A program made the position numbers and the translations under genes. This document shows, one piece after another, positions 22,181-42,236 of a stretch of DNA of 64,000 nucleotides. Location of the stretch: positions 31,780-95,779 of IMG/VR virus record IMGVR_UViG_3300044694_000083; one strand, 5' to 3'. This DNA is from a virus (Duplodnaviria > Caudoviricetes). Below the pieces are notes generated by a model, which was given only the letters and a program-made list of their open reading frames with translations, was not told where the DNA came from and did not search any database. Every line of letters starts with the position of its first letter. The stretch's first letter is position 1.

Positions 22181-22273
22181 ACCAGAGAGCAAGTCAGGGC
22201 GTCAGGCGCATAAGTGGCCGGCCCGCCTGGTGTTTTTCACAACCCTTCAACTTTCGGGCGCCTATCGGGCGCG
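22181..22273 (+). repeat. att-like site J (core then arm)
   Basis: ACCAGA-GAGCAAG-TCAGGG(CGTCAGG); arm TCGGGCGCCTA-TCGGGCGCG 22254-22273. Confidence 0.8.
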
Positions 22274-22278
22274 AGACC

Positions 22279-22755
22279 ATGAAACGACTGTACATCAGCG
22301 GGCCGATGACCGGCTTGTCGCAAAACAACGTCCACGCTTTCAACGCTGAGGCTGAGCGCCTGCGCCTGCTCGATTTCGATGTGGCGAACCCTGCCATCAT
22401 CAAGGAGCAGCCCGGCTTTACCTGGTCGGACTACATGACCCACGCCCTGGCCATGCTGCTGGCCTGTGACGGGGTCGTCATGCTGCCGGGCTGGGAGCAG
22501 AGCCGCGGCGCCTGCCTCGAGCGCCTGGTGGCCGTCGAGCTCGGCGTGCCGGTGTTCCTGGCTGCCGACGTCACGGGCGGACTCGCCATCGCGCAGAACG
22601 ACGGTGCCGATGCCGCGCGCGCACTGTACCGCTGGGCCCGTGCTAGCGCCCGTATGAGCGATGCAAAGGATATCGAGGCAGCGCGTGACACGTACCTGGT
22701 CTACGACGCCGCCCGAGCCGCCCTGCTGAAGGCGGTGGAAGGCGGTGCGGTATGA
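22279..22755 (+). CDS. DUF4406-like (nucleoside deoxyribosyltransferase fold) protein
   Basis: LYISGPMTG..NPA..LPGWEQSRGACLE. Confidence 0.85.
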   Translation: MKRLYISGPMTGLSQNNVHAFNAEAERLRLLDFDVANPAIIKEQPGFTWSDYMTHALAMLLACDGVVMLPGWEQSRGACLERLVAVELGVPVFLAADVTGGLAIAQNDGADAARALYRWARASARMSDAKDIEAARDTYLVYDAARAALLKAVEGGAV

Positions 22756-23192
22756 GTTCCGTCATGTACCGCGAGCACGACGACGTCGCGATCATCATTA
22801 CGCGAGCCAGCGAAACCAAGGTGCACGTCTCGGCGACGGCGCACCTCGTCAAGCAGGGCGAGCCGTACACGGCGACCGATGTCCTCGCGCTGGCTGCTGG
22901 CGTGGAGGCCCTGCAGCAGGAGCGCAACCGGCTGCGAGAGGAGCTGGACGCAGCCCGCGCCGGCGAGATCGGCCGCGAGCACGCTGAGGCATTGCAGGGT
23001 GCACGTAAGGTGATAGCCGAGCTGCGCGAGGCTGGCGTGGCCTTCTTCGAGGTCTACGACCAAGGCGAGGCACCGGATAGCGGCTTAGACGATGCTTTCC
23101 GTAAGAAAGTGGACACCGCTGACCGCTGGCTGGTCTCGGACAGCACGGCCGCCATGGCGCGCGCCAAGGTGCTGAAAGGCGGCGCCCAATGA
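22752..23192 (+). CDS. Hypothetical protein
   Basis: Overlap-coupled ORF. Confidence 0.6.
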   Translation: MSSVMYREHDDVAIIITRASETKVHVSATAHLVKQGEPYTATDVLALAAGVEALQQERNRLREELDAARAGEIGREHAEALQGARKVIAELREAGVAFFEVYDQGEAPDSGLDDAFRKKVDTADRWLVSDSTAAMARAKVLKGGAQ

Positions 23193-23704
23193 CCGCCGCG
23201 ACCCGCGAGAAGGTGCTGGCGGCGCTGGAGCAGGCGTGCCGGGAAGAGGCCGCGAGTGTCTGGAAGACCGACCTGGTCGACGAGGCACACACGGATGAAG
23301 GCTGCGCGCCTCTCGGCGCCGGCACCACGCGCATCATTGAGCTGAGCGAACCGCAAGGCTCACACCCGCGCACCACGCGCCGAGTGCTTGATGCCGAGGT
23401 GGCCGCCGGTCGCGTGTTGCGCCACAAGGCCGACGGGCGGGGTCTGATCCGCTGGTGGCCCGTCGGCCTGCTGGACAAGCTGCAGGCTGAGCGCGCGAGC
23501 GCCGGCATGCGCACGTACTGCCTCGGCTACACGCACGCCAAGTGCGCGGCCTGCCAACACGAGCGCAACTGGGGCGTGCTGAACGAGATGCCGGACGCGG
23601 AACGACTGCCGCTCCAGGTGACCATGACGCGCATCGACAGCGACAAATGCCGGATGACCAACATGGGCGAGCACGCGCCCGTCATCGCCGGAGACGCATC
23701 GTGA
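23189..23704 (+). CDS. Hypothetical protein
   Basis: ATGA-coupled ORF. Confidence 0.6.
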   Translation: MTAATREKVLAALEQACREEAASVWKTDLVDEAHTDEGCAPLGAGTTRIIELSEPQGSHPRTTRRVLDAEVAAGRVLRHKADGRGLIRWWPVGLLDKLQAERASAGMRTYCLGYTHAKCAACQHERNWGVLNEMPDAERLPLQVTMTRIDSDKCRMTNMGEHAPVIAGDAS

Positions 23705-23907
23705 AGCTGCCCGACTACATCGAATCCCTGAAGAAGCGGCGCGCACAGGCCGAGCGAGAGCGTGAGGAGGCGTTTGCGCTGCTGCGCGAGGTCGTCGGCG
23801 AGGCGGGTGAGGTGCCGTTCCTGCCAGCGGTCGTGTCGTCTGGCCTGGTCGCGCGGATCCGCTACCTGCTTGGCCAAGTTGGCGAAGGGAGCGCAAATGG
23901 CGCGTGA
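23701..23907 (+). CDS. Hypothetical protein
   Basis: GTGA coupling on both sides. Confidence 0.5.
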   Translation: MKLPDYIESLKKRRAQAEREREEAFALLREVVGEAGEVPFLPAVVSSGLVARIRYLLGQVGEGSANGA

Positions 23908-24134
23908 CCCGCGACGTCACCCTGATCGATGGCACGACCGTCGACAGCTGGTCGGAGGCCTGGCGCCACGAGTGCGAGGCCCGCGCCATCCTGGCGATGC
24001 CGACCAGGGACGCGCGGCGTAAGCACCTGGACCACGTCGAGCGCCTGCGCGGGACGAAGGAGCGCCAGCGGCTGGAGGAAACGGCCCTGGCGATCTGGGA
24101 GCAGCGGCGCGGCTCACGCGCGGCGGCGTCGTGA
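23904..24134 (+). CDS. Conserved small phage protein
   Basis: SEAWRHECEAR..ERLRG motif. Confidence 0.6.
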   Translation: MTRDVTLIDGTTVDSWSEAWRHECEARAILAMPTRDARRKHLDHVERLRGTKERQRLEETALAIWEQRRGSRAAAS

Positions 24135-24150
24135 CCCGATGATGGAACAG
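24127..24150 (+). promoter_or_regulatory. CGTCGTGA-type promoter
   Basis: CGTCGTGA-CCC-GATGAT-7nt-ATG (24151). Confidence 0.5.
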
Positions 24151-24486
24151 ATGTTCGAGTCAGCGTCGCCCCACCTTCAAGGAGACCGTATGCATACCGC
24201 AGCCGCAAACCCTGATCCCGTCATCAAACGCAGCCCGCGCCTCGGCGCCCTCGTCATCCTGGCAACCTGCGTGCCGTTCTGGGTGGCCGTAGCCTGGATG
24301 GTGACCCAATGAGCCTGCGCGAGAAGTACCGGGACGAGATCCGGGACGGCGCTGCCGGCATCCTGCTCTTCACCATGTGCGGCGTGCTTGGCTGGCTGGT
24401 CGGCCTGGCGATCGCGGTGGCGACGATATGAACGCGGGTCGTGAAAGTATCATTTCTGATTATTTCGACCAAGCAGAAGGACAACC

Positions 24487-25407
24487 ATGAATGACCAGAA
24501 AATTTATGAGCTGATCGCGAAGCATGGCCGCGTGCGCGCCGTGCAGCTTGCCGACTGGCTCGATGAGGACCTGTCCGATGTCAGCCAGGCGCTGCGCGGG
24601 CTGGTCGACGTGGGCGACGTAGTGCAGGCGCGCGGCACGGCGCCGAACGGCCAGCCGTCGATGTTCTACGAGCTCAGCGCAGATTTCATCCGCTCGCGCG
24701 CTGGCAAGGATATCCTGGCGCGCGTGAATGTGGATCCGGCGCCGAACGTGGCCGAGCCTGAAGCGCCGGCGCCAGCGGCACCCGAGGCTATGCCTGACGA
24801 GCCGGCCGCCGGCACCTATGCCGAGCGCGCCGTTGCCTATCTGACGAAGCACGGCGACACGCCTAACGAGGTCCTGCGCATGGCGCTCGGTCTGGCGCGC
24901 GAGCAGGCGCCGGCCAACTTTCTGAAGTCGGCGATCAACGCCGGCAAGCTGCACAAGGACGGCGGTATCTGGCGCCTGGGCAAGGGGCGCGCCTGGAACG
25001 GCCCGACGATCCCGTCCAAGGGCGGCCCGGTGGCGTCGTTCGATCCGAAGGCCCCGATCGAGTACCCGGCCGGCACAGAGAAGCCAGCCGCCGGCGCATT
25101 CGATACCCTGCTGAAGGCGCCTGAGCCGGCCCAGCCCGCGGCGGTGCCCGTGCCGCCGGTGGCCGTTGCCGCGCCGGTCGACCTGGCGAAGCTGAAGACC
25201 GAGCCGGCCCCCGTCGCCGTGCCTGTGTTCGTGCCGCCGGCGCCGGCCGCCACCGCGCCCGTCTACCGCGCCGCGCTCTGGTCCGATGGGATCCTCGAGC
25301 TGCAGCGCGACGGCCAGACCGTCCTGACGTGCACGCGCGGTGAGGGAGAGTTCCTGTCGTCGTTCCTGGCGCGCACGCTGGGCGAGGCCGGGAAGGTGGC
25401 GGCATGA
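24487..25407 (+). CDS. Winged-helix protein with Pro/Ala-rich linker
   Basis: AVQLADWLDEDLSDVSQALRGLV HTH-like; AAGGA RBS. Confidence 0.65.
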   Translation: MNDQKIYELIAKHGRVRAVQLADWLDEDLSDVSQALRGLVDVGDVVQARGTAPNGQPSMFYELSADFIRSRAGKDILARVNVDPAPNVAEPEAPAPAAPEAMPDEPAAGTYAERAVAYLTKHGDTPNEVLRMALGLAREQAPANFLKSAINAGKLHKDGGIWRLGKGRAWNGPTIPSKGGPVASFDPKAPIEYPAGTEKPAAGAFDTLLKAPEPAQPAAVPVPPVAVAAPVDLAKLKTEPAPVAVPVFVPPAPAATAPVYRAALWSDGILELQRDGQTVLTCTRGEGEFLSSFLARTLGEAGKVAA

Positions 25408-25748
25408 TGGACTTTGCCATGCTCCTGTTCCTGCTGCTGGTCGGTCACGCGCTGGCGGACTATCCGCTGCAGGGTGACTTCCTGGCGCAGGCCAAGAACC
25501 GCAACACGGCGATCGGCAAGGTGTTCTGGCCGCATGCGCTGGCTGCGCACTCAGTCATCCATGGAGGCTTCGTGCTGCTGCTGACCGGGTCGCTCTGGCT
25601 GGCGCTGACTGAGGTGTTCGTCCATGCGATCACGGACTGGCTGAAGTGCGAAGGCCAGCTGTCTCTAAACCAGGATCAGGCCGTGCACGTCGCGTGCAAG
25701 GTCATCTACGCCGCGGCCGTGGTGCTGGTTTCAGCATTGACACCCTGA
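25404..25748 (+). CDS. DUF3307-like membrane protein
   Basis: GHALADYPLQ..HSVIH..HAITD..DQAVH. Confidence 0.8.
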   Translation: MMDFAMLLFLLLVGHALADYPLQGDFLAQAKNRNTAIGKVFWPHALAAHSVIHGGFVLLLTGSLWLALTEVFVHAITDWLKCEGQLSLNQDQAVHVACKVIYAAAVVLVSALTP

Positions 25749-25837
25749 TTCCAAATCAGGCGCGCGGCACGCCGAAAGCCGCGCGTCATCTGCATTCCAC
25801 CTGCTGAGCCACCGCGCCCGGGCGCGCATCGGGCGCA
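25743..25837 (+). repeat. att-like site I (core then arm)
   Basis: CCCTGA-TTCCAAA-TCAGGC; arm CCGGGCGCGCA-TCGGGCGCA 25818-25837; TGA is the upstream stop codon. Confidence 0.8.
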
Positions 25838-25844
25838 CGAGACC

Positions 25845-26366
25845 ATGACCGACGATATCGACCTGCACGAATTCACCCACTTCGTCATCCCTGAAGGCGA
25901 CGCGCACCCCGGCGCCCTGTTCCAAGAGCTGATTGAGCTCGACGAGCATATCCACTTTCTGGAGGAGGAGATCGCCGTCGAGTTCCTGCTGCGCGTGGCG
26001 CCGAAGGTGAAACAGGGCCGGCGCCAGCTCGGCATGGCCATCATCCCCACCGTGCAGGGCGAGCTCAAGGACCTGTTCACGCAGCTGCTCGCGCACTGGT
26101 TCGGCCGAGCGCCGCAATTCCTCATCATCCTGGACCAAGAATTCTGGCTGCAGGCCGACGACATCACGCGCCGCGCGCTGCTAGAACACGAGATGTCGCA
26201 TGTGAAGCAAAGTCTCGACAAGAACGGCGATCCGGCCTTTGATCAGGATGGAAACCCAAAATTCGGTATCCGCGCCCATGACGTAGAAGAATTTCAATAC
26301 ATCGTCCGCAAATACGGCGCATGGAATCAGAACCTGGCCGAGTTCCTGCGCGCGGCTGGTCAATAA
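25845..26366 (+). CDS. Putative phage metallopeptidase
   Basis: ALLEHEMSH..HDVEEF..IVRKYG. Confidence 0.8.
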   Translation: MTDDIDLHEFTHFVIPEGDAHPGALFQELIELDEHIHFLEEEIAVEFLLRVAPKVKQGRRQLGMAIIPTVQGELKDLFTQLLAHWFGRAPQFLIILDQEFWLQADDITRRALLEHEMSHVKQSLDKNGDPAFDQDGNPKFGIRAHDVEEFQYIVRKYGAWNQNLAEFLRAAGQ

Positions 26367-26428
26367 AAACAACACCATTACTCAAAAATGATTTAGAATT
26401 GGTCTGTCTAAACCATTCCAGAACAGAC

Positions 26429-26791: not shown

Positions 26792-26866
26792 GCGCTTCAT
26801 CGACTGGATTTTCTCGATCTTCAGCCCGGCCGAGCCGGAATCCGACGAAGACTGGATGGATCGCCA

Positions 26867-29234: not shown

Positions 29235-29734
29235 GCACCCGCCGCAAGACACCGAGGCTCGCTCGTCCCGGCGAGGTCCTTACCCTGGTCGACGAGATGA
29301 TGGCATCGCCGGTCAATCCGATGCCGGAGGCCGACGCCGCGGACCGCGTCGCCGTGGCGCGCCTGCACCTGGCGAACATCCAGACGGCGCCCGTGCCGAC
29401 CGTGATGGACTGGCGCGTGTGCGCGATGGTCGGTAACGTGGTCGAGGTGATGATCGAGCTCGGCTACATCGACGATCCGGACGATCTGCTGATGGATGGC
29501 CAGGCCGCGCTGAAGGACGCCGCCGAGCGCGCGCTGGAGCGCACCGGCGTCATCCGCTTCACGGGCGACGAGCTGCGCGTCGTGGGCGAGCTGATCGACG
29601 GGTTCGCCGACATCCTCGGCTACCTGCCGCACCGCAAGGTGATCCGGGCGTTCCGCGAGACCGACAAGCGCATGCGCGCGCTGGACGCCGGGCAGCGCCG
29701 GCCGGCCGACTACGTGGCGCGCCGGCGCGCCTGA
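29231..29734 (+). CDS. Hypothetical protein
   Basis: GGAGG RBS; stop lies in att-like core H. Confidence 0.65.
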   Translation: MSTRRKTPRLARPGEVLTLVDEMMASPVNPMPEADAADRVAVARLHLANIQTAPVPTVMDWRVCAMVGNVVEVMIELGYIDDPDDLLMDGQAALKDAAERALERTGVIRFTGDELRVVGELIDGFADILGYLPHRKVIRAFRETDKRMRALDAGQRRPADYVARRRA

Positions 29735-29822
29735 CTGTGCATCTGGGCGTCAGCGCCGGCCGCGCCGCTGTACGCCTGCATTTCACCAGCGCGGCAAACA
29801 TTTTGGGCGCCGATAGGGCGCA
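29729..29822 (+). repeat. att-like site H (core then arm)
   Basis: GCCTGA-CTGTGCA-TCTGGG(CGTCAG); arm TTGGGCGCCGA-TAGGGCGCA 29803-29822. Confidence 0.8.
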
Positions 29823-30252: not shown

Positions 30253-30903
30253 ATGCCTCGCCCGAAGGAAGAACGAAAAGACGAGATCATTGCCGCCATC
30301 CGCCAGCACCTGCGACTGGTCGGCCCGCGCGACTATGATGGTCTCATGGCGAAGTACCCGGAGATGAGCCGGGCAACGTTCTACCGCTATCTCAAGGCAG
30401 CGCGCGAGCAGGAGGAGGCCAGCGCCGCGGCCCATGGAACGGGCGCGCTCCGTCTTGCGCAGCAGCGGATCCGCAGCCAGGTCGAGCCACCGGACAAGGT
30501 CCAAGCCAAGATCAAGGCGCACCTGCCCACGGCGCCGTCGCCGGCCGTGGTCGCCGCCGACCCGGTCAACGCCTCGCGCGCGTTCCAGTTCTTCGCGTTC
30601 TTCAACCAGATCGTCGGCGACGCCGAGCTGCTGCGCGGCACGGCCGTCATCAAGAACGACGACGGCACCGAGAAGGTCCGCAACCCGGCCATGCTGGAAA
30701 AGAGCATGCGCGGCCGCCTGGCGATCCTGGACACCTACCTGCACAGCGTCGAGGCGGTCTACAACATGGAGCGCATCCGAGAGCTGTATGACCTGGTGAT
30801 CGAGGAGGTGGGCAAGGCCTCGCCCGACATCCAGATGGCGGTGCTGGCGCGCCTGCGAGAGCTGGACAACCGCCGCGGCCTGACCATGAACGGGAACGTC
30901 TGA
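30253..30903 (+). CDS. Putative terminase small subunit
   Basis: N-terminal HTH (MSRATFYRY); coupled directly upstream of TerL. Confidence 0.6.
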   Translation: MPRPKEERKDEIIAAIRQHLRLVGPRDYDGLMAKYPEMSRATFYRYLKAAREQEEASAAAHGTGALRLAQQRIRSQVEPPDKVQAKIKAHLPTAPSPAVVAADPVNASRAFQFFAFFNQIVGDAELLRGTAVIKNDDGTEKVRNPAMLEKSMRGRLAILDTYLHSVEAVYNMERIRELYDLVIEEVGKASPDIQMAVLARLRELDNRRGLTMNGNV

Positions 30904-33014
30904 TGGCGTTCGGGAAGAAGAAGGCGCCCAAGGTCGACCCGTTTGGCAGCCTCGGCGAGCTGGTGGCGCAGCTCGAGGCGCGCACGGGCTTCCGCGTCGA
31001 CGTCAGCGGAATCGGCGACAAGACGTTCATCGAATGGTGCGAGGACCTGGCCGCCAAGGGCCTGAAGGTCGACGGCAAGCCGTTCCGCCTGGACGATCGC
31101 CCGGCGCTGCGCCCGATCTACGAGGCCATCCCCAGCACGCGCGAGGAGGCCAAGGACGCCATGCTGATCGCCATGAAGGCGACCCAGCTTGGCCTGACGG
31201 TGTGGGAGGTGCTGGCCAACATCTACATGGCGACGAAGTGGGAGCCGGTTTCGATCGGCATGTTCATGCCGTCGATGACCACGGCCATCCACAAGTCCGA
31301 GCACCGTTTTATGCGCATGGTGCGCTCGGCGCCCGACCTGTACCGCCTGCTGATCAACGGCCGCGACGCCGATGGCAATGCGCAGAAGGTCGGCGAGGGC
31401 AACGTGCTAACAAGGAAGGTCGGCGAGTCGCTGCTGCTGTTCCTCTGGACCACCGGCAAGGTGACGACCGAATCCGTGCCGATGGACGTCGTCACCCTGG
31501 ACGAGGTTCAGGAGATGGCCCTGGACCACATCGACAAGGTCCGGGCCCGTATGGGCGATTCCGAGGTGGCTTTCACGCTGATGCTGTCCACGGCCAACAT
31601 GCCGGACCTGGACATCCACTTCTGGTACCTGGAAGGCACGCGCGAGGTCTGGCACACCGAATGCCCGCACTGCAAAGCCATGTCCGACCTATCGGACCCG
31701 GCCGGAATCTTCCCGGACAAGTCGATCGGCTACAACACCGGCCAGCACGCCGGCGCGCCGATGAACGAATACGTCTGGACATGCCCGAGCTGCGGCGGCT
31801 GGATCCAGGATCCGCAGATCGGGCGCTACATCGTCACCAATCCGGGCGCCAACCCGAAAATCCGCTCGTTCCTGCTGCCGCGCACCATCTCGCCGAAGAT
31901 GACGCCGCGGAAGATGATCGAGGCCTGGCGCCGCGCGAAGACCGGCAACCAGAAAAAGAGCTTCTACAACCGCACGCTGGCGCGCCCGTACATCGACGCC
32001 GACCAGCTGCCGGTGACGATGGCGCACTGCCTGGCCGCCATGGAGGCCGGCATTGCCGCTGGCATCAAGTGGGAGAAGAAGCACGACGGCGCCAGCAGCT
32101 ATTTCTGCGGCATTGACCAGATGGGCGGCTTCAACGCCGTCATCATCAAGAAGCGGCTGCCGAATGGCCGCCAGGCGGTCGTGCACGTCGAGGCGGTATT
32201 CGACAACGATCCGTTCGAGCGCTGCGCCGAGCTCATGAACATCTTCCGGATCGAGGTCTGCGTGGTTGAGCAGCTGCCGAACGTGAACGATGCGCGCCGG
32301 TTCGCGAACCGCTTCCCTGGCCGCGTGTTCCTGGCCGGCTATGCCGACCTGCGCGACGACCAGATGGTGTGGGGCGACGACTTGTCGAAGTCGGACCGGC
32401 GCACGTCCGAGGACGATCGGTCGCGCTACACTGTCACGCTGAACCAGTACAAATGCATGCAGACCGCGCTGTTCCGCGTGCGTGAAGGCCACTGCATTTT
32501 CCCGAACGCCGACGACCTGGTGCAGGACGTGGTCGAGAACGGCGAGACGAAGCGGATCCCGATCCTGCGCGACTGGGTTTTCGTCCACTACACGAAGACC
32601 GCGCTCGTGGTCGACGACGGCTCGGAGACAGTCAGCGGCAAGCCGAAAAAGGACATGGAGGCGCGCAAGCTGCGCATGAAGGTCCTGAAGGTCGGCATGG
32701 ACCCGCACTACAGCTACGCCAACATGCTGTGCGACGTGGCCTGGGCCCGGTCGCACGGAACGACCACGTTTATCCTGCCCGACACAACACCAACCGGAGC
32801 GCCCGTGATCAAACCAGAAGACATCGGCGCCGCGCCGCTGATCAATGCCGTGCACGAGCTCCGCCAGGAGGCTATGGCCGGCACGTGCGGCCGCTGCACG
32901 GCCTACGACGAGACCGACGGCATGTGCATGGAACGCTGGTTCAAGGTGAAGGCCTCGGATCCGGCCTGCCCGATGTTCGACGAGGACCCGTACGCGGGCG
33001 CTGCGCCCGAATAG
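30903..33014 (+). CDS. Terminase large subunit (GpA-like)
   Basis: MKATQLGLT, TLDEVQEM, CPHC/CPSC, FYNRTLARPY, CGIDQ. Confidence 0.88.
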   Translation: MAFGKKKAPKVDPFGSLGELVAQLEARTGFRVDVSGIGDKTFIEWCEDLAAKGLKVDGKPFRLDDRPALRPIYEAIPSTREEAKDAMLIAMKATQLGLTVWEVLANIYMATKWEPVSIGMFMPSMTTAIHKSEHRFMRMVRSAPDLYRLLINGRDADGNAQKVGEGNVLTRKVGESLLLFLWTTGKVTTESVPMDVVTLDEVQEMALDHIDKVRARMGDSEVAFTLMLSTANMPDLDIHFWYLEGTREVWHTECPHCKAMSDLSDPAGIFPDKSIGYNTGQHAGAPMNEYVWTCPSCGGWIQDPQIGRYIVTNPGANPKIRSFLLPRTISPKMTPRKMIEAWRRAKTGNQKKSFYNRTLARPYIDADQLPVTMAHCLAAMEAGIAAGIKWEKKHDGASSYFCGIDQMGGFNAVIIKKRLPNGRQAVVHVEAVFDNDPFERCAELMNIFRIEVCVVEQLPNVNDARRFANRFPGRVFLAGYADLRDDQMVWGDDLSKSDRRTSEDDRSRYTVTLNQYKCMQTALFRVREGHCIFPNADDLVQDVVENGETKRIPILRDWVFVHYTKTALVVDDGSETVSGKPKKDMEARKLRMKVLKVGMDPHYSYANMLCDVAWARSHGTTTFILPDTTPTGAPVIKPEDIGAAPLINAVHELRQEAMAGTCGRCTAYDETDGMCMERWFKVKASDPACPMFDEDPYAGAAPE

Positions 33015-33092
33015 CGCCCGAACGGCGGCGCCGGCGCCCGGTTCCCTATGAAAACCCGGCCCGGCGCCCTGATTGCTACTCTGGGCGTCAGG
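33002..33092 (-). repeat. att-like site A (arm then core on + strand)
   Basis: TGCGCCCGAAT-AGCGCCCGA 33002-33021; CCCTGA-TTGCTAC-TCTGGG(CGTCAGG) 33067-33092. Confidence 0.85.
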
Positions 33093-33825
33093 CCGCGGCT
33101 GCGGTGTCAGCGGCTGAGCAGATTGAATGCTGCTGCTGCCACTCGAGGAACTTGTGCATTCCCAAGGGCTCTATTGCGCTCCAGCCTGAAGGGAATCCCA
33201 TCAGCCACTCGCTCCACTCTGGGTTCACGCGGCCAGTCGATGTGGTGGATAGTCCTTCCACTTCCGCCAGACGGCTGGCCAAAGTGTCCGACTTGCCTTT
33301 GTGGCGCCCTCCACACTTCTTCCCGATCGACGCCGTCAGCGTAGGCCAGAATCCAGATCCTCTCTCGCTCGTGCGGAGCGTCGGCATGGTGCGCTCCGAT
33401 GACGCCCCATTCCGCATCATACCCCAGCGCGGCCAGGTCCCCGAGAACTCGTCCGAGTCCTCGAGCAGTGAGCATTGGACTGTTTTCCACCCACACGAAG
33501 CGCGGTCGTACTTCGCGAACGATGCGATGCTGGTGCGACCATAGTCCACTGCGCTCGCCATCGATGCCAGCTCCCGAACCGGCTGCGCTGATGTCCTGGC
33601 ATGGAAAGCCGCCAGAAACGACATCAACAATTCCTCGCCATGGTCGGCCGTCAAAAGTTGTGACGTCAGACCAAATCGGGAAAGGTCGAAGGATTCCGTC
33701 GTTTTGTCGTTGCGCCAAAACGGTTGCTGCGTAGGCATCACGCTCAACTGCACATACGGTTTTCCATCCAAGGAGGTGCCCGCCGAGAATTCCTCCACCA
33801 GCGCCCGCGAAAAGAGCCAGCTCAT
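33088..33825 (-). CDS. Overlapping alternative-frame MTase subunit carrying motif IX
   Basis: Open 245 codons inside MTase gene; WPT and NPEWSEWLMGFPSGW; true start uncertain. Confidence 0.65.
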   Translation of the reverse strand: MSWLFSRALVEEFSAGTSLDGKPYVQLSVMPTQQPFWRNDKTTESFDLSRFGLTSQLLTADHGEELLMSFLAAFHARTSAQPVRELASMASAVDYGRTSIASFAKYDRASCGWKTVQCSLLEDSDEFSGTWPRWGMMRNGASSERTMPTLRTSERGSGFWPTLTASIGKKCGGRHKGKSDTLASRLAEVEGLSTTSTGRVNPEWSEWLMGFPSGWSAIEPLGMHKFLEWQQQHSICSAADTAAAA

Positions 33826-33829
33826 TCAT
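33107..33829 (-). CDS. C5-cytosine DNA methyltransferase, main subunit
   Basis: LFAGAGG, GGFPCQD, VENS, HERERI, ALGNA (motif X); no motif IX. Confidence 0.9.
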   Translation of the reverse strand: MNELALFAGAGGGILGGHLLGWKTVCAVERDAYAATVLAQRQNDGILRPFPIWSDVTTFDGRPWRGIVDVVSGGFPCQDISAAGSGAGIDGERSGLWSHQHRIVREVRPRFVWVENSPMLTARGLGRVLGDLAALGYDAEWGVIGAHHADAPHERERIWILAYADGVDREEVWRAPQRQVGHFGQPSGGSGRTIHHIDWPREPRVERVADGIPFRLERNRALGNAQVPRVAAAAFNLLSR

Positions 33830-33957: not shown

Positions 33958-34048
33958 TGCGCCCGACTAGCGCCCGAAGTCGTCAGCGCGGGCCAGCTCT
34001 CCAGGGAAAAGCCGGCCAAAAACCCAGATCCGTTATCTGGGCGTCAGG
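33958..34048 (-). repeat. att-like site B
   Basis: TGCGCCCGACT-AGCGCCCGA; CCCAGA-TCCGTTA-TCTGGG(CGTCAGG) 34023-34048. Confidence 0.85.
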
Positions 34049-34796
34049 CTGCGGCCCGTGGCATGGCGAGCTCGTACGCATGCGCGACCCTGGCATCGGC
34101 CGTCGCGAAGTGCTTGGCGTCGTCTTCCATGCCGACGAACAGCCGTCCGGTGTTGGCGCACGCGACGCCTGTCGTCCCGCTGCCCATAGCAAAGTCCAGC
34201 ACCACCTGGCCGGCATTGGTGTAGGTGCGCACCAGGTATTCCATCAGCGCCAGCGGCTTTTGCGTCGGGTGCAGCTTGCTGCGCTGCTTGTCACTGGAGA
34301 AGAACTGGACGCTGCGCGGGTAGCGGCTGGTCGAGTCGTAGACGGTCAACTGGTTGCCCTGGCCGTAGCATTCGCTCGCGACGGTCTTGCGCTTCGTGCT
34401 CTTGCGGGCGTGGCCGTGCGTCATCTGCGGATTGTAGGTTGGCTGGCGGCTGCAGAAGACAAGCACCGTTTCGTGCGCGCGCAGCGGCGCCTTCTTCGCG
34501 TTGAGGAAGCCGGTCGCATTTCCCTTCTCCCAGACCCAGTCGTGCCGGAACCACCCGGGGTTGCTCATCACCAGTGCGCTGGAAAAAGGCTGGCTGGCGG
34601 TAAACACGATCACGCCGCCCGGCTTCACGATGCGTCGCAGCTGCTCCCACATTTGATCGAGCGGGATAACCGCATCCCACGCGTTGCGCGTTGTTCCATA
34701 AGGAGGGTCACAAACAACGGCGTCCACGCTGGCCGCCGGCAGGTTACGCATCGCCTCGATGCAGTCGCCGAGGTGCAAGGTATAGGGTCTGGTCAT
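34044..34796 (-). CDS. N6-adenine/N4-cytosine DNA methyltransferase (beta class)
   Basis: DPPY, HPTQKP, VLDFAMGSGTT. Confidence 0.92.
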   Translation of the reverse strand: MTRPYTLHLGDCIEAMRNLPAASVDAVVCDPPYGTTRNAWDAVIPLDQMWEQLRRIVKPGGVIVFTASQPFSSALVMSNPGWFRHDWVWEKGNATGFLNAKKAPLRAHETVLVFCSRQPTYNPQMTHGHARKSTKRKTVASECYGQGNQLTVYDSTSRYPRSVQFFSSDKQRSKLHPTQKPLALMEYLVRTYTNAGQVVLDFAMGSGTTGVACANTGRLFVGMEDDAKHFATADARVAHAYELAMPRAAA

Positions 34797-34859
34797 AGAA
34801 AGTAGTGGAACGTCACGCCCGGCGCGTGGCCGGGTGAAAACGCGTGCAATTTAGTGAAG

Positions 34860-34960
34860 TGCGCCCGATCGGCGCCCGAATTTACCTCCTGCTGCTGGAG
34901 GTCATTGTATCATAAAAGATAAATCCCATGGGCAACCAGATTCAGCATCTGGGGGTCAGG
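34860..34960 (-). repeat. att-like site C
   Basis: TGCGCCCGATC-GGCGCCCGA; ACCAGA-TTCAGCA-TCTGGGGGTCAGG; 34947-34960 identical to attP 1601-1614. Confidence 0.88.
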
Positions 34961-35003: not shown

Positions 35004-35681
35004 ATGAGCACCATCCTCTTCATCAAGGCGCGTGACCTGCGCGACACGCACACCAGCGATATGTTTGCCACGCACCTCGAGACGCGGACGCGAAAAGATG
35101 GGGTGACCCAGCAATACCACGTGGCAGCGCCGAAGCCGGCCGCGCCTGCGCATGCTGGCCATGACAGCCGGCGCGAGGCCATGGCTGCGTTCGATGGCGA
35201 GCGCTCCGACGCTGTGGCGCTGAAGCGCGGCGACAAGTGGCTGGCCGTGCGACGTAGCGAGGCCGAGAAGCACCTGGCGGACGGCTGGAAGGATCCGAGC
35301 GGGGAGGTCGGGAAGCCGGCAACTGTCAGCGAGGCGCTGCGCGACCTGGCCGGCAGCAAGGCCAAGAGCATCGACTTCGACAGCCTGACCTACCTCAAGA
35401 ACACGGTCGGCCTGAAGGGGCTGAGCGAAGATGAGGCGCGCCACGTGGGCAACGCCATCAGCCTGATCTCGCACATGCGCGACACCGGCCGGCTGAGCGG
35501 CACGCACATGCTGCAGATCCGCGACAAGCTGCGCGGCAAGGCAGTGCTGGACATGGTCGAGCAGGTCGCCGCCCGGATGAAAGAGGTTCGCGATCCCCTC
35601 GACGCGGTGCGCGAGTATTTCTACGGCCGTGAGAACATGACCAAGGCGCTCGTCTTCCTGCGCCCTATCGGCGCCCGATAA
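35004..35681 (+). CDS. Putative internal head (cargo) protein
   Basis: N-term ILFIKA, RTRKDG hairpin, C-term MTKALVFLR; late promoter. Confidence 0.6.
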   Translation: MSTILFIKARDLRDTHTSDMFATHLETRTRKDGVTQQYHVAAPKPAAPAHAGHDSRREAMAAFDGERSDAVALKRGDKWLAVRRSEAEKHLADGWKDPSGEVGKPATVSEALRDLAGSKAKSIDFDSLTYLKNTVGLKGLSEDEARHVGNAISLISHMRDTGRLSGTHMLQIRDKLRGKAVLDMVEQVAARMKEVRDPLDAVREYFYGRENMTKALVFLRPIGAR

Positions 35682-35733
35682 CGGCGGCGCGCCAGCATCC
35701 GCAGAGAGCGGACAACCAGACTCAGGGTCTGGT
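35659..35733 (-). repeat. att-like site D
   Basis: TGCGCCCTATC-GGCGCCCGA; ACCAGA-CTCAGGG-TCTGGT 35715-35733. Confidence 0.8.
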
Positions 35734-36220: not shown

Positions 36221-37180
36221 TCACGTCACCGTCAGCATCGCCAGCGCGGCGAGAGCCTGAGCCGCCTTCGTCGGAGCGAGCAGCTTGAGCGGCAGCAGCC
36301 AGAGCAGTGTGGCGAGCGGCGTGTCTCGCCTGACGTGCTTACGGTAGAAGGCGGGGGTGATGCTGGTCACTTCCTTGAATGACGTCGTGAAGTGCGATTG
36401 GCTCGCGAACCCGCATAGAAGTGCAATTTGCGCCAGGCTTTGTTTGCTGGTTGCCAGGTAATATTTGGCGGTATCCACTCGTCGGCGTAACACGTAAAGC
36501 AGCGGTGTCCGCCCCGTCGCAGCCTTGAACGCGCGTGTGAAGTGCGATGGACTGAGGCCGAGCATAGCAGCGAGCTCATTGGATTTGATCGATCGGTCAA
36601 TATTCTGGTCAATATATGAATCGACCTGAGCGACCTCTAATTCTCCGATGGGCTCTGTCTCTTGTATCTGCCGATTCTCCCTGGTTTTGCATACAACCTT
36701 CAGAACGCGATAGACGATCGACAAAATCAGGGCATCGATCAGTGGTGGCAGGGCGATTCGTGGTGTTTCCAGAGAGATCGATTTCAGTAGCGCGACCGCA
36801 GTGGCCAGAGTCATGTTTGGCCGCACCTCGAAATACACGAAATTGCAGTCGTAAAGATCACTGTTCATGGCAAGAACGCGGTTGAACCAACGCTCCGGAA
36901 TAATCACGGCAGCCGTAATCATGGGTTCATTCGTCCGCACATGGACAGTGGTGTTTTTCGGCACAAAAAACACCGAATTGGGAGCGTATTCCTCGCGCGA
37001 ATGGTCCTCCCCATTTACGAGCAGTGATCCTTTTGCTTTTGTTTCGAGCAGGAATATCGCATGAGTGTCGAAACGAAGGGTGGCTGGTCCGATCGCATCG
37101 GTGAATACATGCACCTCCAAATCGCGGATTGATCTGACCGTGTGTGTTTCCGATTTCCAAAACGACAGAGTCTCCGGCAT
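36221..37180 (-). CDS. AraC-family transcriptional regulator (moron)
   Basis: LSPSHFTRAFK..IALLCGFASQSHFT..TPAFYR; visibly lower GC. Confidence 0.9.
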   Translation of the reverse strand: MPETLSFWKSETHTVRSIRDLEVHVFTDAIGPATLRFDTHAIFLLETKAKGSLLVNGEDHSREEYAPNSVFFVPKNTTVHVRTNEPMITAAVIIPERWFNRVLAMNSDLYDCNFVYFEVRPNMTLATAVALLKSISLETPRIALPPLIDALILSIVYRVLKVVCKTRENRQIQETEPIGELEVAQVDSYIDQNIDRSIKSNELAAMLGLSPSHFTRAFKAATGRTPLLYVLRRRVDTAKYYLATSKQSLAQIALLCGFASQSHFTTSFKEVTSITPAFYRKHVRRDTPLATLLWLLPLKLLAPTKAAQALAALAMLTVT

Positions 37181-37212
37181 TGCTACCTCCAGCTATAGGA
37201 GGCGTAACATTT

Positions 37213-37306
37213 TGCGCCCGATGGGCGCCCGAAGCCAGCCTGGGCGAGTCAAAAACTCGTGCGGAGCCATGCTTGTCGATCATGACGCCCAGATTAAAGA
37301 TCAGGG
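37213..37306 (-). repeat. att-like site E
   Basis: TGCGCCCGATG-GGCGCCCGA; (TGACG)CCCAGA-TTAAAGA-TCAGGG 37288-37306. Confidence 0.85.
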
Positions 37307-37474: not shown

Positions 37475-37524
37475 TGTTCAAAATCCTCGGGTCTCGTTTT
37501 TGAGTATCGATAGTTCATGCCATG

Positions 37525-38039: not shown

Positions 38040-38286
38040 CGCGGGCCTCCTTCCACTCCAGGAACGGCACGCGCACGATGCGATGGAAGTCGTCAGCCGC
38101 TCGTGCGTTCGTGTCGAGCTCGTTGCGGCTCTCGATGCCGCACGCGGTCAGGATGAATTCCTTGGCGGCCGCCTCGTCGAACTTGACGCCGTCGCCGGTT
38201 TCCCCGGCCAGGTGCTCCAGCCAGGCACAGAACTGCGGATCCCGGCAGAACGTGCACGCCATGATGCAGAGGTCGCGAGTGCTCAT
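38029..38286 (-). CDS. Conserved phage hypothetical protein
   Basis: CRDPQF..CGIESRNELD. Confidence 0.65.
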   Translation of the reverse strand: MSTRDLCIMACTFCRDPQFCAWLEHLAGETGDGVKFDEAAAKEFILTACGIESRNELDTNARAADDFHRIVRVPFLEWKEARDGE

Positions 38287-38440
38287 TGCGGGGCTCCATT
38301 CACCAGAAACCAAAGCAGCAGACAGCCAATCACCGCCAGACCGATCAGCGCGCGCCGCTCGCGCACCGTCAGCGGCCGCTCCTTGCGCAACGGGCAGCGG
38401 TCGCTCTGGCCGCAGTTGTGGTTGCAGCAGGTCGGGCGGC

Positions 38441-39283
38441 TCACGGTTGCACCTTGGCGATGATGTCGGACAGTTTTATTTGACGCACAACCGTTCCCTC
38501 AAGCCCGTTGTCGCATTTCATGACGGCAACGTAGCACGCGTCACGCACCGCCTCGGCGATCGCCATATCGCGCCCGCCGCGGTTATCTTCGCTGCGCCGG
38601 CCAACCGGCGGGATCCACATCTCGCCGCCGCGGTCCGTGTAGCCATAGCGATAGAGCGTGCGCGTCGCGCGATCCAGGTCGGCTTGAACCTTTTCGAAAT
38701 CGGATAGCGCTCGCTCGTGCATTTCGGCCGCGACGTAGGCGTTTTTGCCGCTTACGATCGTCGGCAGCACCAGCTGGCCGTTATCCACCGCGTGGCGCAG
38801 GGCGGCGTTGGCGAAGTGCTGAAGGCTCGACATGCGCACGTCGCCCTGATCCACCTCGCGCCAGGCTCGCAGCATCTCGCCGTCCTTCATCCCCGTCACC
38901 GGGTACTGCTTCGCCGGCGCCGGCCATGCCCACAGCTCAGGGTTCATCTCGCCCCATGTCGGCCTTGCGGTGACTCGGCTGCCGTCCTTCTTGTCGACCA
39001 GTTCGTCGCCCACGAATACCGGCTTGCCGTCGATGTGGCCGAGCGGGGTCATGACGAGCGTGCGCTCCTCGGCCCGCGAGTAGTACGCCGGCATCGCACC
39101 ATTGACGTCCCACTTCATAAGCACGTCCTCTTCCTGGGTTTGGATCAGACCGAGGATGTTGCAGCAGGATCTGTCGCGGTGGTCCCACTTCAGGACCTCG
39201 ACTTTCTCGCCGCTCGCGCAGCAGAACGGCGCTCCAGCGCGCGCGTGTTCAAGGTTAAACGGTCGGCTTTCTTGTGTTTTCAT
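38441..39283 (-). CDS. Mosaic hypothetical protein
   Basis: RPFNLEHARAGAP N-terminus; starts 7 nt after arm F. Confidence 0.65.
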   Translation of the reverse strand: MKTQESRPFNLEHARAGAPFCCASGEKVEVLKWDHRDRSCCNILGLIQTQEEDVLMKWDVNGAMPAYYSRAEERTLVMTPLGHIDGKPVFVGDELVDKKDGSRVTARPTWGEMNPELWAWPAPAKQYPVTGMKDGEMLRAWREVDQGDVRMSSLQHFANAALRHAVDNGQLVLPTIVSGKNAYVAAEMHERALSDFEKVQADLDRATRTLYRYGYTDRGGEMWIPPVGRRSEDNRGGRDMAIAEAVRDACYVAVMKCDNGLEGTVVRQIKLSDIIAKVQP

Positions 39284-39290
39284 TGTGCGT

Positions 39291-39385
39291 TGCGCCCTAA
39301 CGGCGCCCGTTGGTTAATCGAAATTTCTAGAAGAAATTGTATCAGAAAAGATTAAGCGCGTGCGTAACCTGATTGGTTGTCAGGT
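39291..39385 (-). repeat. att-like site F
   Basis: TGCGCCCTAAC-GGCGCCCGT; ACCTGA-TTGGTTG-TCAGGT 39367-39385. Confidence 0.8.
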
Positions 39386-39598
39386 GCTCACGATGCGGCT
39401 GATGTATTCGCGCAACTGGCGGCGCACAGCCCAGAGCTTCTGCGCGCAGCCCGGCCGATTGAACAGGTACTCGCTCGGCGTGAGCATGTAGGAGCGTCCG
39501 AGCTGCTGCTCGATGCCGCCGACAGTCACGACGCGTACCATGATCCACTCGACACAGCCTCCCTTGTGACAGAGCTTGCGATTGCGAACGCGCTTCAT
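39380..39598 (-). CDS. Hypothetical protein
   Basis: ATGA-coupled; stop in core F. Confidence 0.5.
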   Translation of the reverse strand: MKRVRNRKLCHKGGCVEWIMVRVVTVGGIEQQLGRSYMLTPSEYLFNRPGCAQKLWAVRRQLREYISRIVST

Positions 39599-40044
39599 GC
39601 CGCCATCCTCATCATGATTTTGTCGAGCTCGCCCAACTGATGGCCGGTGCGTGGCCGCGACTCGTTGCGGTGGTACCACGCGCGGCGCGCGGCCAGGTGG
39701 TCCTTCTTGCGCTGCTGCTTCGTCAGCTTGTGGTCCTCGCCCGGGCCGGCGGTGAAAACGGCGATGTAGTCGCGACCCTGGTTCTCCGGCGGCAGGTGGT
39801 CCTCGATGTGGCACAGGCCCTCGGCGTGCAGCTTCCTGACGGCCTTGCGCGCGGTCTCGTACTGGATGTCCAACTTCTCCGCGAGCTGCTTCGTAGTGCC
39901 CGGCATCGCGGCCAGCAGCCGCTGGCGCGTGTCCGACTTCGTCAGCGGCGTCGCCAGCTTGTTGCGCCACTGGGTGTAGTGGTTGTTGCAGAGGCCGCGC
40001 GCGCGGACCTGGTGCGCGCAGCCGTCGCGGGTGCAGGTCTTCAC
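39595..40044 (-). CDS. Zn-finger plus HTH protein
   Basis: CTRDGC..RGLCNNHY; TTKQLAEKLDI HTH. Confidence 0.65.
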   Translation of the reverse strand: MKTCTRDGCAHQVRARGLCNNHYTQWRNKLATPLTKSDTRQRLLAAMPGTTKQLAEKLDIQYETARKAVRKLHAEGLCHIEDHLPPENQGRDYIAVFTAGPGEDHKLTKQQRKKDHLAARRAWYHRNESRPRTGHQLGELDKIMMRMAA

Positions 40045-40268
40045 GCGGCAGCCCCGCGTAGGTGCGGCGCATGCTGGCAGCCGGCGCAGCCCTGGTCGCG
40101 CGCGCTGGCGTCGTACTGGCAGTCGGTGGACATGCGGAAGGGTGCCTGGACATAGCTCGCGACCGTCACCAGGTTACCCATCCCGTCCATGATATCGCGG
40201 TAACCGTCCTGCACGTCGACCGGCGCGCCAGCCACCGGCCGCGGCCTGTTGTTGCAGCCGTTAATCAT
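40041..40268 (-). CDS. Small Cys-containing protein
   Basis: GCNNR..DCQY..GCAGC. Confidence 0.5.
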   Translation of the reverse strand: MINGCNNRPRPVAGAPVDVQDGYRDIMDGMGNLVTVASYVQAPFRMSTDCQYDASARDQGCAGCQHAPHLRGAAA

Positions 40269-40752
40269 GGTTTCCGCCTTCGCTGTCGTCGGCCGGTGTC
40301 GCGCGCTCCTCCGGTGTGATCGTGAACAAAAAGGATGCCAGCGGCAGCACGTCGTCGAGCGGGTCGTTGGGCATGGCGCCGGTAGTCTTGGCCCACTCCC
40401 TCTTGAAGGCCTCGAGGTCTTCGTCGCTGAACTCGCCGCGTATTTCAACCAGGCCGGGCAACAGCATCGCTTCGGCCCGCTCCAGCCGCTCGATCAGCTC
40501 CAGCACGGCGGCGGGGTTGGCGGCGGCGATGAAGAGTCCGTTCGCCTCATTGAGGTCCTTGCCCGGGACAATCTCCGGGTTTCGCATGGTGCCAACGTCG
40601 CACGATGGCGAGAAGATCACCGAGCCGTCCACTGCCTTGATCTGCGGCGTGTGCATCGTCGGGTAGAAGCCGCCGTGGGGCAGCGCCTCCCACGGCCCCG
40701 GCGTCGCCGCCTGCGCCAGCTCCTTGAGGCGGGTGAGGTCGAGGGCGGTCAT
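40261..40752 (-). CDS. Ead/Ea22-like protein
   Basis: LKELAQAATPGPW..FIAAANPAAVLELI. Confidence 0.8.
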   Translation of the reverse strand: MTALDLTRLKELAQAATPGPWEALPHGGFYPTMHTPQIKAVDGSVIFSPSCDVGTMRNPEIVPGKDLNEANGLFIAAANPAAVLELIERLERAEAMLLPGLVEIRGEFSDEDLEAFKREWAKTTGAMPNDPLDDVLPLASFLFTITPEERATPADDSEGGNHD

Positions 40753-40997
40753 TGGGCACCTCCGCCAACCTCGACCGGGCGCGTCGTCTTCCCGTGGCGC
40801 TCCTCCCACGCGGCTGAGCCGCGGCAGTTCGTGAAGTAGCGCGCCGAGCCGCCATCGAAGAACCTGTAGACCGTGCAGCCGTCCTTGGTGAACAGGGTGT
40901 CGACCACGAACTCGCTGTTCACGCGCTGGCGGGTCTCCGGGTCCTTCGAGCAGCCTGCCAGGAGCGCGAGGGCGATCAGGATGATGGTGGATTTCAT
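40749..40997 (-). CDS. Small lipoprotein (DUF4884-like)
   Basis: Lipobox LAGC; LFTKDGCTVYRF. Confidence 0.75.
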   Translation of the reverse strand: MKSTIILIALALLAGCSKDPETRQRVNSEFVVDTLFTKDGCTVYRFFDGGSARYFTNCRGSAAWEERHGKTTRPVEVGGGAQ

Positions 40998-41038
40998 ACC
41001 TTCCTTTCATCGCGCCCGGCGGACCGGGCGCATCGGGG

Positions 41039-41275
41039 TTATTTTTCGGGCGACGTGATCGCGTCGAGGTAGCTGATGGCGCGAACCCCCGGCGGCCCAT
41101 TGTGGCGGCCTTTGCCGAGAACCAGCGCGCCCTGCTTTGGCACGTTGGCGCGCTCAGGCCCGAAGCCGTCATAGTCGTCGATGATCTGGTCGAGCCCGAA
41201 CTTTCGCTTCAGCCGGATTGCGTTCGTGGTCTTGCCGCAGCCGGCCGGACCGTAGACGTAGAGGGAGGCGGCCAT
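41039..41275 (-). CDS. Miniature P-loop protein
   Basis: VYGPAGCGKTT..IIDD in 78 aa. Confidence 0.6.
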   Translation of the reverse strand: MAASLYVYGPAGCGKTTNAIRLKRKFGLDQIIDDYDGFGPERANVPKQGALVLGKGRHNGPPGVRAISYLDAITSPEK

Positions 41276-41502
41276 TATGCGGCGACCGGGATCAGGCCCT
41301 TGCGGTCGGCTTTCTTCGCCATGCGGTAGATGGCGCGGCCGCATGCTGGCAGGAGGTTGCGCTGACCGAGGAACTGGCCACGCGGCGCGCCGAACAGGTC
41401 GAACAGCATGATCGGTTTCGTGGGCACGAGTTCGACTTCACGCGGGTGCTTGCCGATGGCACGAACGGCGCGGCGGGCGATTTTGGACTGTTTGTGGGAC
41501 AT
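41275..41502 (-). CDS. Hypothetical basic protein
   Basis: AAGGA RBS. Confidence 0.5.
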   Translation of the reverse strand: MSHKQSKIARRAVRAIGKHPREVELVPTKPIMLFDLFGAPRGQFLGQRNLLPACGRAIYRMAKKADRKGLIPVAA

Positions 41503-41525
41503 GGTTTTCCTTGTGGTGGGGTTGA

Positions 41526-41876
41526 TTAATAGCCGGTGCGCATGCGGTTCACGATCTGCTGCGCGTGCATGCCGATCATGGCGTTGAGGATGTCGCCGGC
41601 GCTTTCCTTGATTACCTGCTGGACGATTGCGCTTGCTGCAGGTCCGCCCATGCCCCAGGTTTCCTGGTACTCGGGTTTCTTCAGCTCTTCCTTCACGACC
41701 GCTTCGAACTGCTCGCGGATCTGGTTGGCGATCATCTCCTGCAGCTTGTTGCGGCGGAAGTGCGCGACCTGCTCTTCGACCAGGCGGCCGAGCTCGTCTT
41801 CCGGGATCAGGTTGGCGATGGTTTCCTGCACGCGTTCCTTGACGCGCTGCTCGAGGGTGGCGATCTGGCCGCTCAC
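41526..41876 (-). CDS. Hypothetical protein
   Basis: GTGA-coupled to acpP. Confidence 0.6.
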
Positions 41877-42130
41877 GCCGACACCTTGGCAGTGATGTAG
41901 TCGATGGCCTGCTGGACGGTGGTGATGCCGCCAGCTTCGTCGTCCGGGATCTCGATTTCGAATTCGTCCTCGATCGCCATGACGAGCTCGACCTCGTCCA
42001 GGCTGTCGGCGCCTAGGTCGTCGACGAATGTCTGTTCCGGCTTCACGTCTGCTTGTGCGATGCCGAGCTGTTCGGAGATGACGCGCTTAATGCGGTCGGC
42101 GGTGGTGCTGGCCTTGATATTGGTGTCCAC
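41873..42130 (-). CDS. acpP: Acyl carrier protein
   Basis: [40 protein letters not shown]. Confidence 0.93.
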
Positions 42131-42142
42131 GTTTTCCTTGAT

Positions 42143-42236
42143 TGCGCCCTATACGCGCCCGGGCTGGTTGGCGTGCCGGCAAAAGGCCGGCTGGTGTTGG
42201 GGTTCCGCTGGCTGACGCCCAGACCTCAAATCAGGG
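42143..42236 (-). repeat. att-like site G
   Basis: TGCGCCCTATA-CGCGCCCGG; (TGACG)CCCAGA-CCTCAAA-TCAGGG 42218-42236. Confidence 0.8.

Follow-up and report, generated by a model that had tools for sequence, protein, structure and literature searches.

The window analysed in this study is the last 64 kb of the 95.8-kb IMG/VR record of a temperate phage, and its subject is a set of ten short composite elements, dispersed between positions 22182 and 42235, that resemble attachment (att) sites of the tyrosine integrase encoded by the same phage. The gene map of the window consists of our own crude calls, based on GC content at third codon positions (GC3). At the left end of the window lie the integrase gene and attP, the attachment site of the phage itself, with the following features:

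135..1427, - strand: tyrosine integrase, an open reading frame (ORF) of 430 aa with three domains, an arm-binding one at the N-terminus, a central one and a catalytic one
1455..1875, + strand: attP, with the P arm pair at 1455-1474, the core CTAGA-CTACGAA-TCTGG at 1590-1606 and the P' arm pair at 1730-1749
1590-1640: 3' half of tRNA-Arg(ACG), which begins with the attP core
1819-1827 and 1854-1875, - strand: further arm repeats at attP

The ORF at 135-1427 was the only integrase-like frame and the sole recombinase found in the genome. It matched the Pfam families Arm-DNA-bind_3 (PF13356, 1.8e-15) and Phage_integrase (PF00589, 9.5e-10) as well as the phrog_1 integrase profile (1.3e-45), and is of the P4/lambda type with an arm-binding domain; its true start probably lies a little downstream of the TTG. 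A PDB sequence search with the integrase gave no match, and a second arm-binding-domain protein, considered as a candidate, was not found in the genome by tblastn. At attP the core stands 115 and 123 bp from the arm pairs, and ARAGORN recognized no whole tRNA there.

A pattern scan for CCWGA-N7-TCWGG recovered ten cores in the window, the 7-bp spacers of which are exactly those listed in a preliminary description of this DNA, while the remaining 31.8 kb of the phage record contain no site of this type. Together with a linker and a pair of arm repeats, each core forms one element (spacers are written on the + strand, and the linker length is the core-to-arm distance):

22182..22273, + strand: element 1, core 22182-22198 (GAGCAAG), 55-bp linker with a terminator-like hairpin, arm pair 22254-22273; the following gene begins at 22279
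25744..25837, + strand: element 2, core 25744-25760 (TTCCAAA), 57-bp linker, arm pair 25818-25837; the following gene begins at 25845, and CCTGA holds the stop codon of the upstream gene
29730..29822, + strand: element 3, core 29730-29746 (CTGTGCA), 56-bp linker, arm pair 29803-29822; heads the terminase cassette
33002..33084, - strand: element 4, core 33068-33084 (TTGCTAC), 46-bp linker, arm pair 33002-33021, which overlaps the stop codon of the terminase gene
33958..34040, - strand: element 5, core 34024-34040 (TCCGTTA), 46-bp linker, arm pair 33958-33977; upstream of a C5-methyltransferase gene
34860..34952, - strand: element 6, core 34936-34952 (TTCAGCA), 56-bp linker with TGATACAAT, arm pair 34860-34879; upstream of an N6/N4-methyltransferase gene
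35659..35732, - strand: element 7, core 35716-35732 (CTCAGGG), 37-bp linker, arm pair 35659-35678
37213..37305, - strand: element 8, core 37289-37305 (TTAAAGA), 56-bp linker, arm pair 37213-37232; upstream of an AraC-family gene at 36221-37180
39291..39384, - strand: element 9, core 39368-39384 (TTGGTTG), 57-bp linker with TGATACAAT, arm pair 39291-39310
42143..42235, - strand: element 10, core 42219-42235 (CCTCAAA), 56-bp linker with a GC hairpin, arm pair 42143-42162; on its other side the element is followed by the portal gene, from 42332

The arm repeats stand in tandem on one side of every core (10/10 sites) as YCGGGCGCN-NN-TMGGGCGCA with an 11-bp period, and the repeat TCGGGCGCA recurs with the same period at attP. 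Elements 1-3 point rightwards and elements 4-10 leftwards, and in eight of the ten the arm-side gene has the same direction, from core to arm. The spacing is 55-57 bp in seven sites, 46 bp in two and 37 bp in one, the shorter distances being equal to 56 bp minus one or two helical turns. The genome holds ten composites of core and arm pair, as against 0.0 in 200 Markov-simulated genomes, and a looser core pattern gave 24 strand matches where 2.95 were expected. All ten sites are intergenic on the GC3-based map. The half-sites fall into the classes that had been described earlier (..GGGCGTCA; ..GGTK; ..GGGCGCC/GGCGCGC), which are all present, mixed, and found on either side relative to the arm. 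The linker sequences are not conserved; among 42 elements of six genomes, a GC hairpin occurs in 25, a hairpin with a T-rich tail in 7 and a -10-like motif in 4, the motif being of the extended type (TGATACAAT) in elements 6 and 9. Scans for sigma-70 and terminator consensus sequences gave background levels only, and no consensus site for integration host factor (IHF) was seen in the linkers.

The spacers share a pattern at their ends, which the preliminary description had characterized as mostly pyrimidine to purine: Y at position 1 is combined with R at position 7 in 9 of the 10 sites, and the 33 distinct spacers of six genomes give the consensus Y-N4-A-R. That no two spacers of the genome are identical, to which importance had also been attached, is true but uninformative, because the probability of a match is only ~1.2e-3 per pair, given the position-specific composition, and by simple arithmetic 11 random spacers are expected to be all different in about nine out of ten draws. 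The features that exceed chance are the sites themselves and their arm pairs. The central W residues of the two half-sites do not covary (they are paired in 6 of 11 cases, and 311 of 500 shuffles scored as high), and the half-sites are therefore to be read as protein-binding half-sites, not as a hairpin. An RNA hairpin, a cruciform, a terminator or an element resembling repetitive extragenic palindromes was accordingly rejected, the sole variable stem position being unpaired in 5 of 11 cases, without covariation and with a score equal to that of shuffled sequences.

In G008, an integrated relative of the phage, the complete tRNA-Arg reads CCAGA-CTACGAA-TCTGG-GGGTCA, and the internal sites thus reproduce attB, with the anticodon stem as the half-sites, the loop as the 7-bp overlap, and in addition an extended right half (TCTGGGGGTCA in attB of G008 versus TCWGGGYGTCA at the internal sites). 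An arm-type motif is present in the target tRNA-Arg too, as its 3' acceptor strand (TCGGGCGCG). In the window, the arm repeat TCGGGCGCR equals the 3' acceptor-stem strand (TTCGGGCGCGCCA) at 1626-1640, and attB therefore carries one arm-like motif 21 bp from its core. The attL site of lambda is composed of the B-O-C' core, the H' bend and tandem P' arm sites. Each internal element is laid out in this way, with a core, a bendable linker and tandem arm sites, and what it shares with attL comprises an integrase that has both an arm-binding and a catalytic domain, a core matching attP and attB, and common arm repeats at a fixed distance on one side. The earlier interpretation as integrase core-type sites with arms therefore finds good support in four respects, namely the arm repeat as at attP, the core equal to the anticodon stem-loop of attB, the arm-binding integrase, and the dependence of the core on the att target described below, and the integrase probably binds the elements.

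Relatives of the phage were gathered by an IMG/VR scan for arm pairs and by a terminase search, and the figures given for them hold among the matches listed. There are at least about a dozen, with genomes of 80-96 kb; they are metagenomic contigs with the exception of Bordetella phage PHB04, an isolated phage that shows synteny with the window. All of them have arm pairs with a core upstream, and in 63 elements from other contigs the spacing is 55-57 bp in 48. Hereafter, G000 denotes the window's phage and G001 its closest relative. The att targets and the internal cores of the relatives are as follows:

G000, G001, G006, G008, G016 and G018: att target tRNA-Arg; internal cores CCWGA/TCWGG
G013: att target tRNA-Arg; cores CCWGA/TCWGG; the catalytic part of the integrase belongs to a different clade (~33% identical)
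G011: tRNA-Gly(CCC), stem ACAGC/GCTGT; cores AMWGA/TCTGT
G012: tRNA-Gly(CCC), stem ACAGC/GCTGT; cores mostly ACTGA/GCTGT
PHB04: tRNA-His-like half ending in TCTGG; cores MCWGA/TCWGN
G009: candidate core A-CTCAAAA-TCTGG; cores CCAGA/TCTGG

The arm motif is constant across these phages and the integrase N-domain is 54-66% identical, whereas the remainder of the protein is 24-33% identical or undetectable. The integrases of G000, G007, G010, G009 and G013 are chimeric, with a conserved arm-binding domain and a diverged core-binding/catalytic part, and the sequences suggest that integrase domains may have been swapped within this group. The core motif, on the other hand, varies with the tRNA target, the two tRNA-Gly(CCC) phages having the combined motif AMWGA/KCTGT. 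Covariation of the core type with the integrase clade was considered and rejected, since G013 and G009 have CCWGA-type cores despite a G007-type integrase, and it is the att target that the cores follow. This tracking is, as far as sequence comparison goes, good though incomplete evidence that the integrase would read the internal cores. Searches for the G007-type integrase in genome_contigs and viral_contigs returned nothing, and the core-plus-extension pattern in viral_contigs returned mostly chance single matches.

Several observations were made around the attP sites of the relatives. Complete tRNA-Leu(CAA) genes adjoin the attP arms in G007 (13888-14250) and G009 (64806-65158), and the candidate attP overlap of both, CTCAAAA, is the anticodon loop of their own tRNA-Leu(CAA), an arrangement that resembles the "tRNA-dependent lysogeny" of mycobacteriophages (PMC10865867). 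The attP of G012 (~67300-67460) contains the inverted 5' half of tRNA-Gly(CCC), and that of G011 the 3' half of this tRNA, as is usual. A palindrome of the type TKMTCAAAAATGAKMA, probably an operator, is present beside int/attP in G007 (~14036-14075), G010 (24840-24890), PHB04 (~1340-1360) and G011 (~29515-29530). G001 has an eleventh element at 66955-67017, with the core CCAGA-AACTGCG-TCTGG and an arm pair only 26 bp away, which separates the P arm from the start codon of int; all that the window has in this place is the remnant of a half-site (TCAGG), 22 bp in front of the P arm pair.

The preliminary description had proposed that the spacers be catalogued at corresponding slots of related genomes, with the alternatives that recombination tolerates heterology or that the spacers act as slot addresses. 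Slot orthology between distant genomes rests on gene-family order. In the ~90% identical pair G016 and G018, the spacer is common to 6 of the 6 slots called orthologous. Between G006 and G016, 3 of 4 slots have all seven spacer positions in common (tacggaa, tgctgaa and tcctcaa), although the linkers and flanks at those slots align about as poorly as unrelated sequences (0.49-0.59). Identical spacers in pairs without flank homology number 14 in all, where 1.2 are expected, and the methyltransferase cassette common to G000 and G001 has the spacer tgctgaa on one side in the former phage and on the other side in the latter. The comparison of G006 with G016 fits the proposal of addresses; slot 1, where the spacer differs in every lineage, and the pair G000/G001 considered below do not. 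The slot-specific constraint on the spacers is thus partial, holding in part of the related phages and not universally. Where it holds, it is hard to explain for a site that is merely bound, and the conservation of whole spacers in the G006 clade argues for an identity rule over tolerance, but with the ends of the spacers conserved (Y at position 1, A-R at 6-7), there may be room for a heterology-tolerant variant.

The intervals between the sites, designated here as units, contain accessory genes in some cases and essential genes in others:

unit C: gpA-type terminase
unit D: single gene, C5 methyltransferase
unit E, 34041..34935, - strand: single gene, N6/N4 DNA methyltransferase at 34044-34796
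unit F: single gene without family match
unit G: AraC-family regulator
other units: blocks of small genes

Some breaks of homology between relatives coincide with the cores. Unit E is homologous between G000 and G001 from core to core (blastn high-scoring segment pair 34024-34940 versus G001 7151-8066, 83% identity), while the units on either side of it are non-homologous between the two phages. A 1.63-kb indel that is present in G016 and missing from G018 also ends on cores, and its joint in G018 consists of the core and spacer of one G016 site and the right flank of the next. A search of metagenome_contigs for the junction pattern of cassette E returned nothing. The cores serve as joints in some cases, but most gene turnover takes another route; of the cassette turnover that had been expected earlier, the exact breaks at cores are found, but they account for a minority of it.

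Our preferred interpretation, which we hold at somewhat less than even confidence, is that the ten sites are attL-like integrase sites permitting exchange between relatives at slots with matching spacers. Two half-sites (CCWGAY / RTCWGG), copied from the anticodon stem of the target tRNA, would flank the 7-bp overlap, and the heterobivalent integrase, with two protomers per site, would contact arm and core simultaneously over a bent linker. Each element would then be a half-intasome, and two elements with the same overlap could synapse as a tetramer and exchange, so that recombination with the same slot of a co-infecting or resident relative would swap everything to one side of it. Because the ten overlaps differ from each other and from that of attP, a lambda-like enzyme would be unable to delete or invert segments of the phage's own genome. 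That recombination does take place at the elements is to us nearly, but not quite, an even proposition. In its widest form, which we regard as possible and put forward a little more tentatively, the proposal is that temperate phages of ~90 kb like PHB04 use the chromosomal integrase as a second, intragenomic recombination system, with att halves at every operon boundary and spacers as addresses that allow in-register module exchange without self-deletion, and hence as a programmed, integron-like engine of mosaicism.

Several findings weigh against this interpretation. Between G000 and G001 the spacers agree at 7/7 positions in only one of nine slots, at 6/7 in two and at no more than 3/7 in six (33/63 positions in total), and under a strict identity rule most slots would therefore be unable to recombine; the low identity is found mostly where the neighbouring unit has been replaced. 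Of the 13 places at which homology between G016 and G018 breaks off, only 2 touch a core, and lineage-specific genes are not enriched beside the sites (0.49 versus 0.55, P = 0.81), so that the sites were rejected as preferred places of gene gain. The cores of G007 and G010 have no obvious match to their own candidate attP. In addition, a tie to gene expression is suggested both by the start codons, since 31 of the 42 elements have a co-oriented one within 120 nt of the arm pair (median distance ~20 nt), and by the position of the extra G001 element at the start of int. These last points would be expected if the elements were regulatory or architectural sites, at which arm-core bridging by the integrase loops out the ~56-bp linker with its terminator or promoter and thereby switches operons off or on during the set-up or maintenance of lysogeny, the spacers differing only to keep binding from becoming recombination. 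The location at operon boundaries and the orientation of the sites, which follows that of the genes in most of the window, agree with such a role, as do the two linkers with a conserved extended -10, the frequent GC hairpins, the autoregulation-like position of the G001 element 24 bp upstream of int, and the fact that most gene turnover bypasses the sites. We nevertheless consider this reading, the main rival, to be rather less likely than exchange, because slots keep distinct and exactly conserved 7-bp spacers despite decayed linkers, whereas a site used for binding only would need no slot-specific spacer; moreover, the two arm repeats and two half-sites per element equal the stoichiometry of a recombination half-complex, some homology breaks lie exactly on cores, and the content of the linkers is uneven, with the -10-like motif and the T-tailed hairpin each confined to a few of the 42.

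Readings that dispense with the integrase or with a function fit the data poorly. The elements might punctuate operons through another factor, the arm pair being the promoter or operator of a phage-encoded regulator, the core a stop or terminator context, and the likeness to attP a matter of common descent of short motifs. Arm pairs do stand just upstream of start codons, some arm variants (TATAGGGCGCA) superficially resemble the ends of phage RNA polymerase promoters, and the core with its extended half-site provides the TGA stop codons of several upstream genes; but neither a phage RNA polymerase nor a second arm-binding-domain protein was found in the genome, the arm repeat stands around attP in either orientation and with no gene start beside it, the core motif varies according to the tRNA target, and the arm motif tracks the conserved integrase N-domain, all of which renders this reading improbable. 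A phage RNA polymerase that reads the arm pair as a promoter was rejected specifically, as the large ORFs proved to be DarB-like methyltransferase/helicase, helicase, primase and terminase, and a transposase as the acting enzyme was likewise rejected, the phrog_513 "transposase" match of the ORF at 25845-26366 being a phage metallopeptidase according to Pfam. It would be more surprising still if the elements were functionless scars, that is, drifting attL/attR joints left by serial integrations of small elements into the phage. The single arm per element, as in a recombination product, and the mixed-and-matched appearance of the half-sites would suit such an origin, and yet number, position, core, arm pair and helical phasing have been kept where shared genes are ~65-70% identical and linkers are unalignable, and the spacers retain the Y-N4-A-R pattern; to judge from this conservation, scars appear disfavoured.

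The attL-like sites proposed here would be built of the parts of a lambda/P4-type att site, whose intasome architecture has been determined for lambda Int (PMC4880445), and integrons, pdif modules, shufflons and the PeSL (promoter early stem-loop) cassettes of T4-type phages seem comparable in their working. Like lambda-type attL and the P4 family, the elements combine a heterobivalent integrase with inverted half-sites around a 7-bp overlap, tandem arms ~50-80 bp to one side and a core taken from an anticodon stem-loop. Unlike attL, they occur in ten copies dispersed in the phage besides the real attP and are not products of chromosomal integration; their usual internal spacing of 56 bp also differs from the distances at their own attP, and their linkers lack a visible IHF consensus. 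In the literature searched, we found no description of a dispersed array of integrase core and arm sites inside a phage. As stated in PMC2817482, lambda-type enzymes require overlap identity, while IntDOT requires it only next to the first cut. The CTnDOT/Tn916 integrases are alike in having an arm-binding domain, and in the phage spacers the conserved residues, Y at position 1 and A-R at 6-7, may by analogy correspond to the part that CTnDOT enzymes need to be identical; the slot-specific conservation of whole spacers, however, points to an identity requirement here and not to tolerance.

Integrons (IntI, attC) are similar in that copies of a recombination-type site separate genes or short operons, the gene of a single tyrosine recombinase stands in another part of the same element, the sites are oriented in step with the genes, and some cassettes carry a single accessory gene, as do the two with methyltransferases. 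They differ in that the phage has no IntI-type enzyme, its sites are double-stranded modules of half-sites and arms with a unique spacer per slot, and its units include essential genes (terminase); an integron was rejected because the sole variable pair shows no hairpin covariation and the integrase is P4-type with an arm domain. In the pdif modules of Acinetobacter plasmids, many core sites with a short variable spacer also bound modules that are shuffled among relatives (PMC6449649, PMC13141974), but they are served by host XerC/XerD and have a 6-bp spacer and no arms, in contrast with the phage integrase, the 7-bp spacer and the fixed-phase arm pairs of the present elements. Xer/dif modules (11-6-11 sites) were rejected for these reasons and for the inner half-sites of 5-6 bp, and an Rci shufflon, in which sfx sites with identical 7-bp spacers are inverted in the alternative 3' ends of one gene, because no two spacers here are the same and the sites, lying between genes, delimit whole operons. 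The PeSL cassettes of T4-type phages (PMC2839356) and the start-associated sequences of Cluster K mycobacteriophages (PMC3203893) are likewise repeated intergenic elements at module boundaries or upstream of starts and have been proposed to guide modular shuffling or expression; they are, however, motifs of the promoter/stem-loop or translation-linked kind, and neither an integrase nor an att site is connected with them.

Some further features of the window deserve mention. The gpA-type large terminase gene (30903-33014) and the portal gene (42332-44092) are ~9 kb apart, as they are in PHB04, and between them lie mostly opposite-strand accessory genes (two DNA methyltransferases, the AraC regulator and small ORFs). 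In the C5-methyltransferase gene, the stretch 33585-33829 has a DNA identity of 86% with Salmonella phages S9-5 and ABTNLsp11242 and of ~75-78% with Ralstonia phages; as the protein covers no more than the first half of the Pfam model, the gene is possibly truncated. Two very large ORFs stand among the virion genes, at 49091-55132 and 55788-60329 (2013 and 1513 aa), and match DarB-like antirestriction methyltransferase/helicase and helicase families.

The proposal is open to direct testing, because the isolated relative PHB04 carries the same elements, and the way in which the core tracks the tRNA target provides a natural series of integrase/site specificities for engineering. Annotators of phage genomes should expect att-like sites far from int. 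Should the sites prove to be regulatory, a chromosomal integrase would act as a genome-wide regulator through attL-like loops, which would also be new. The mosaicism of phage genomes is usually ascribed to selection acting on the products of illegitimate or short-homology recombination at random positions. If exchange between relatives does take place at the slots described here, it would constitute a different mechanism of mosaicism, one that is phage-encoded, site-specific and addressable.

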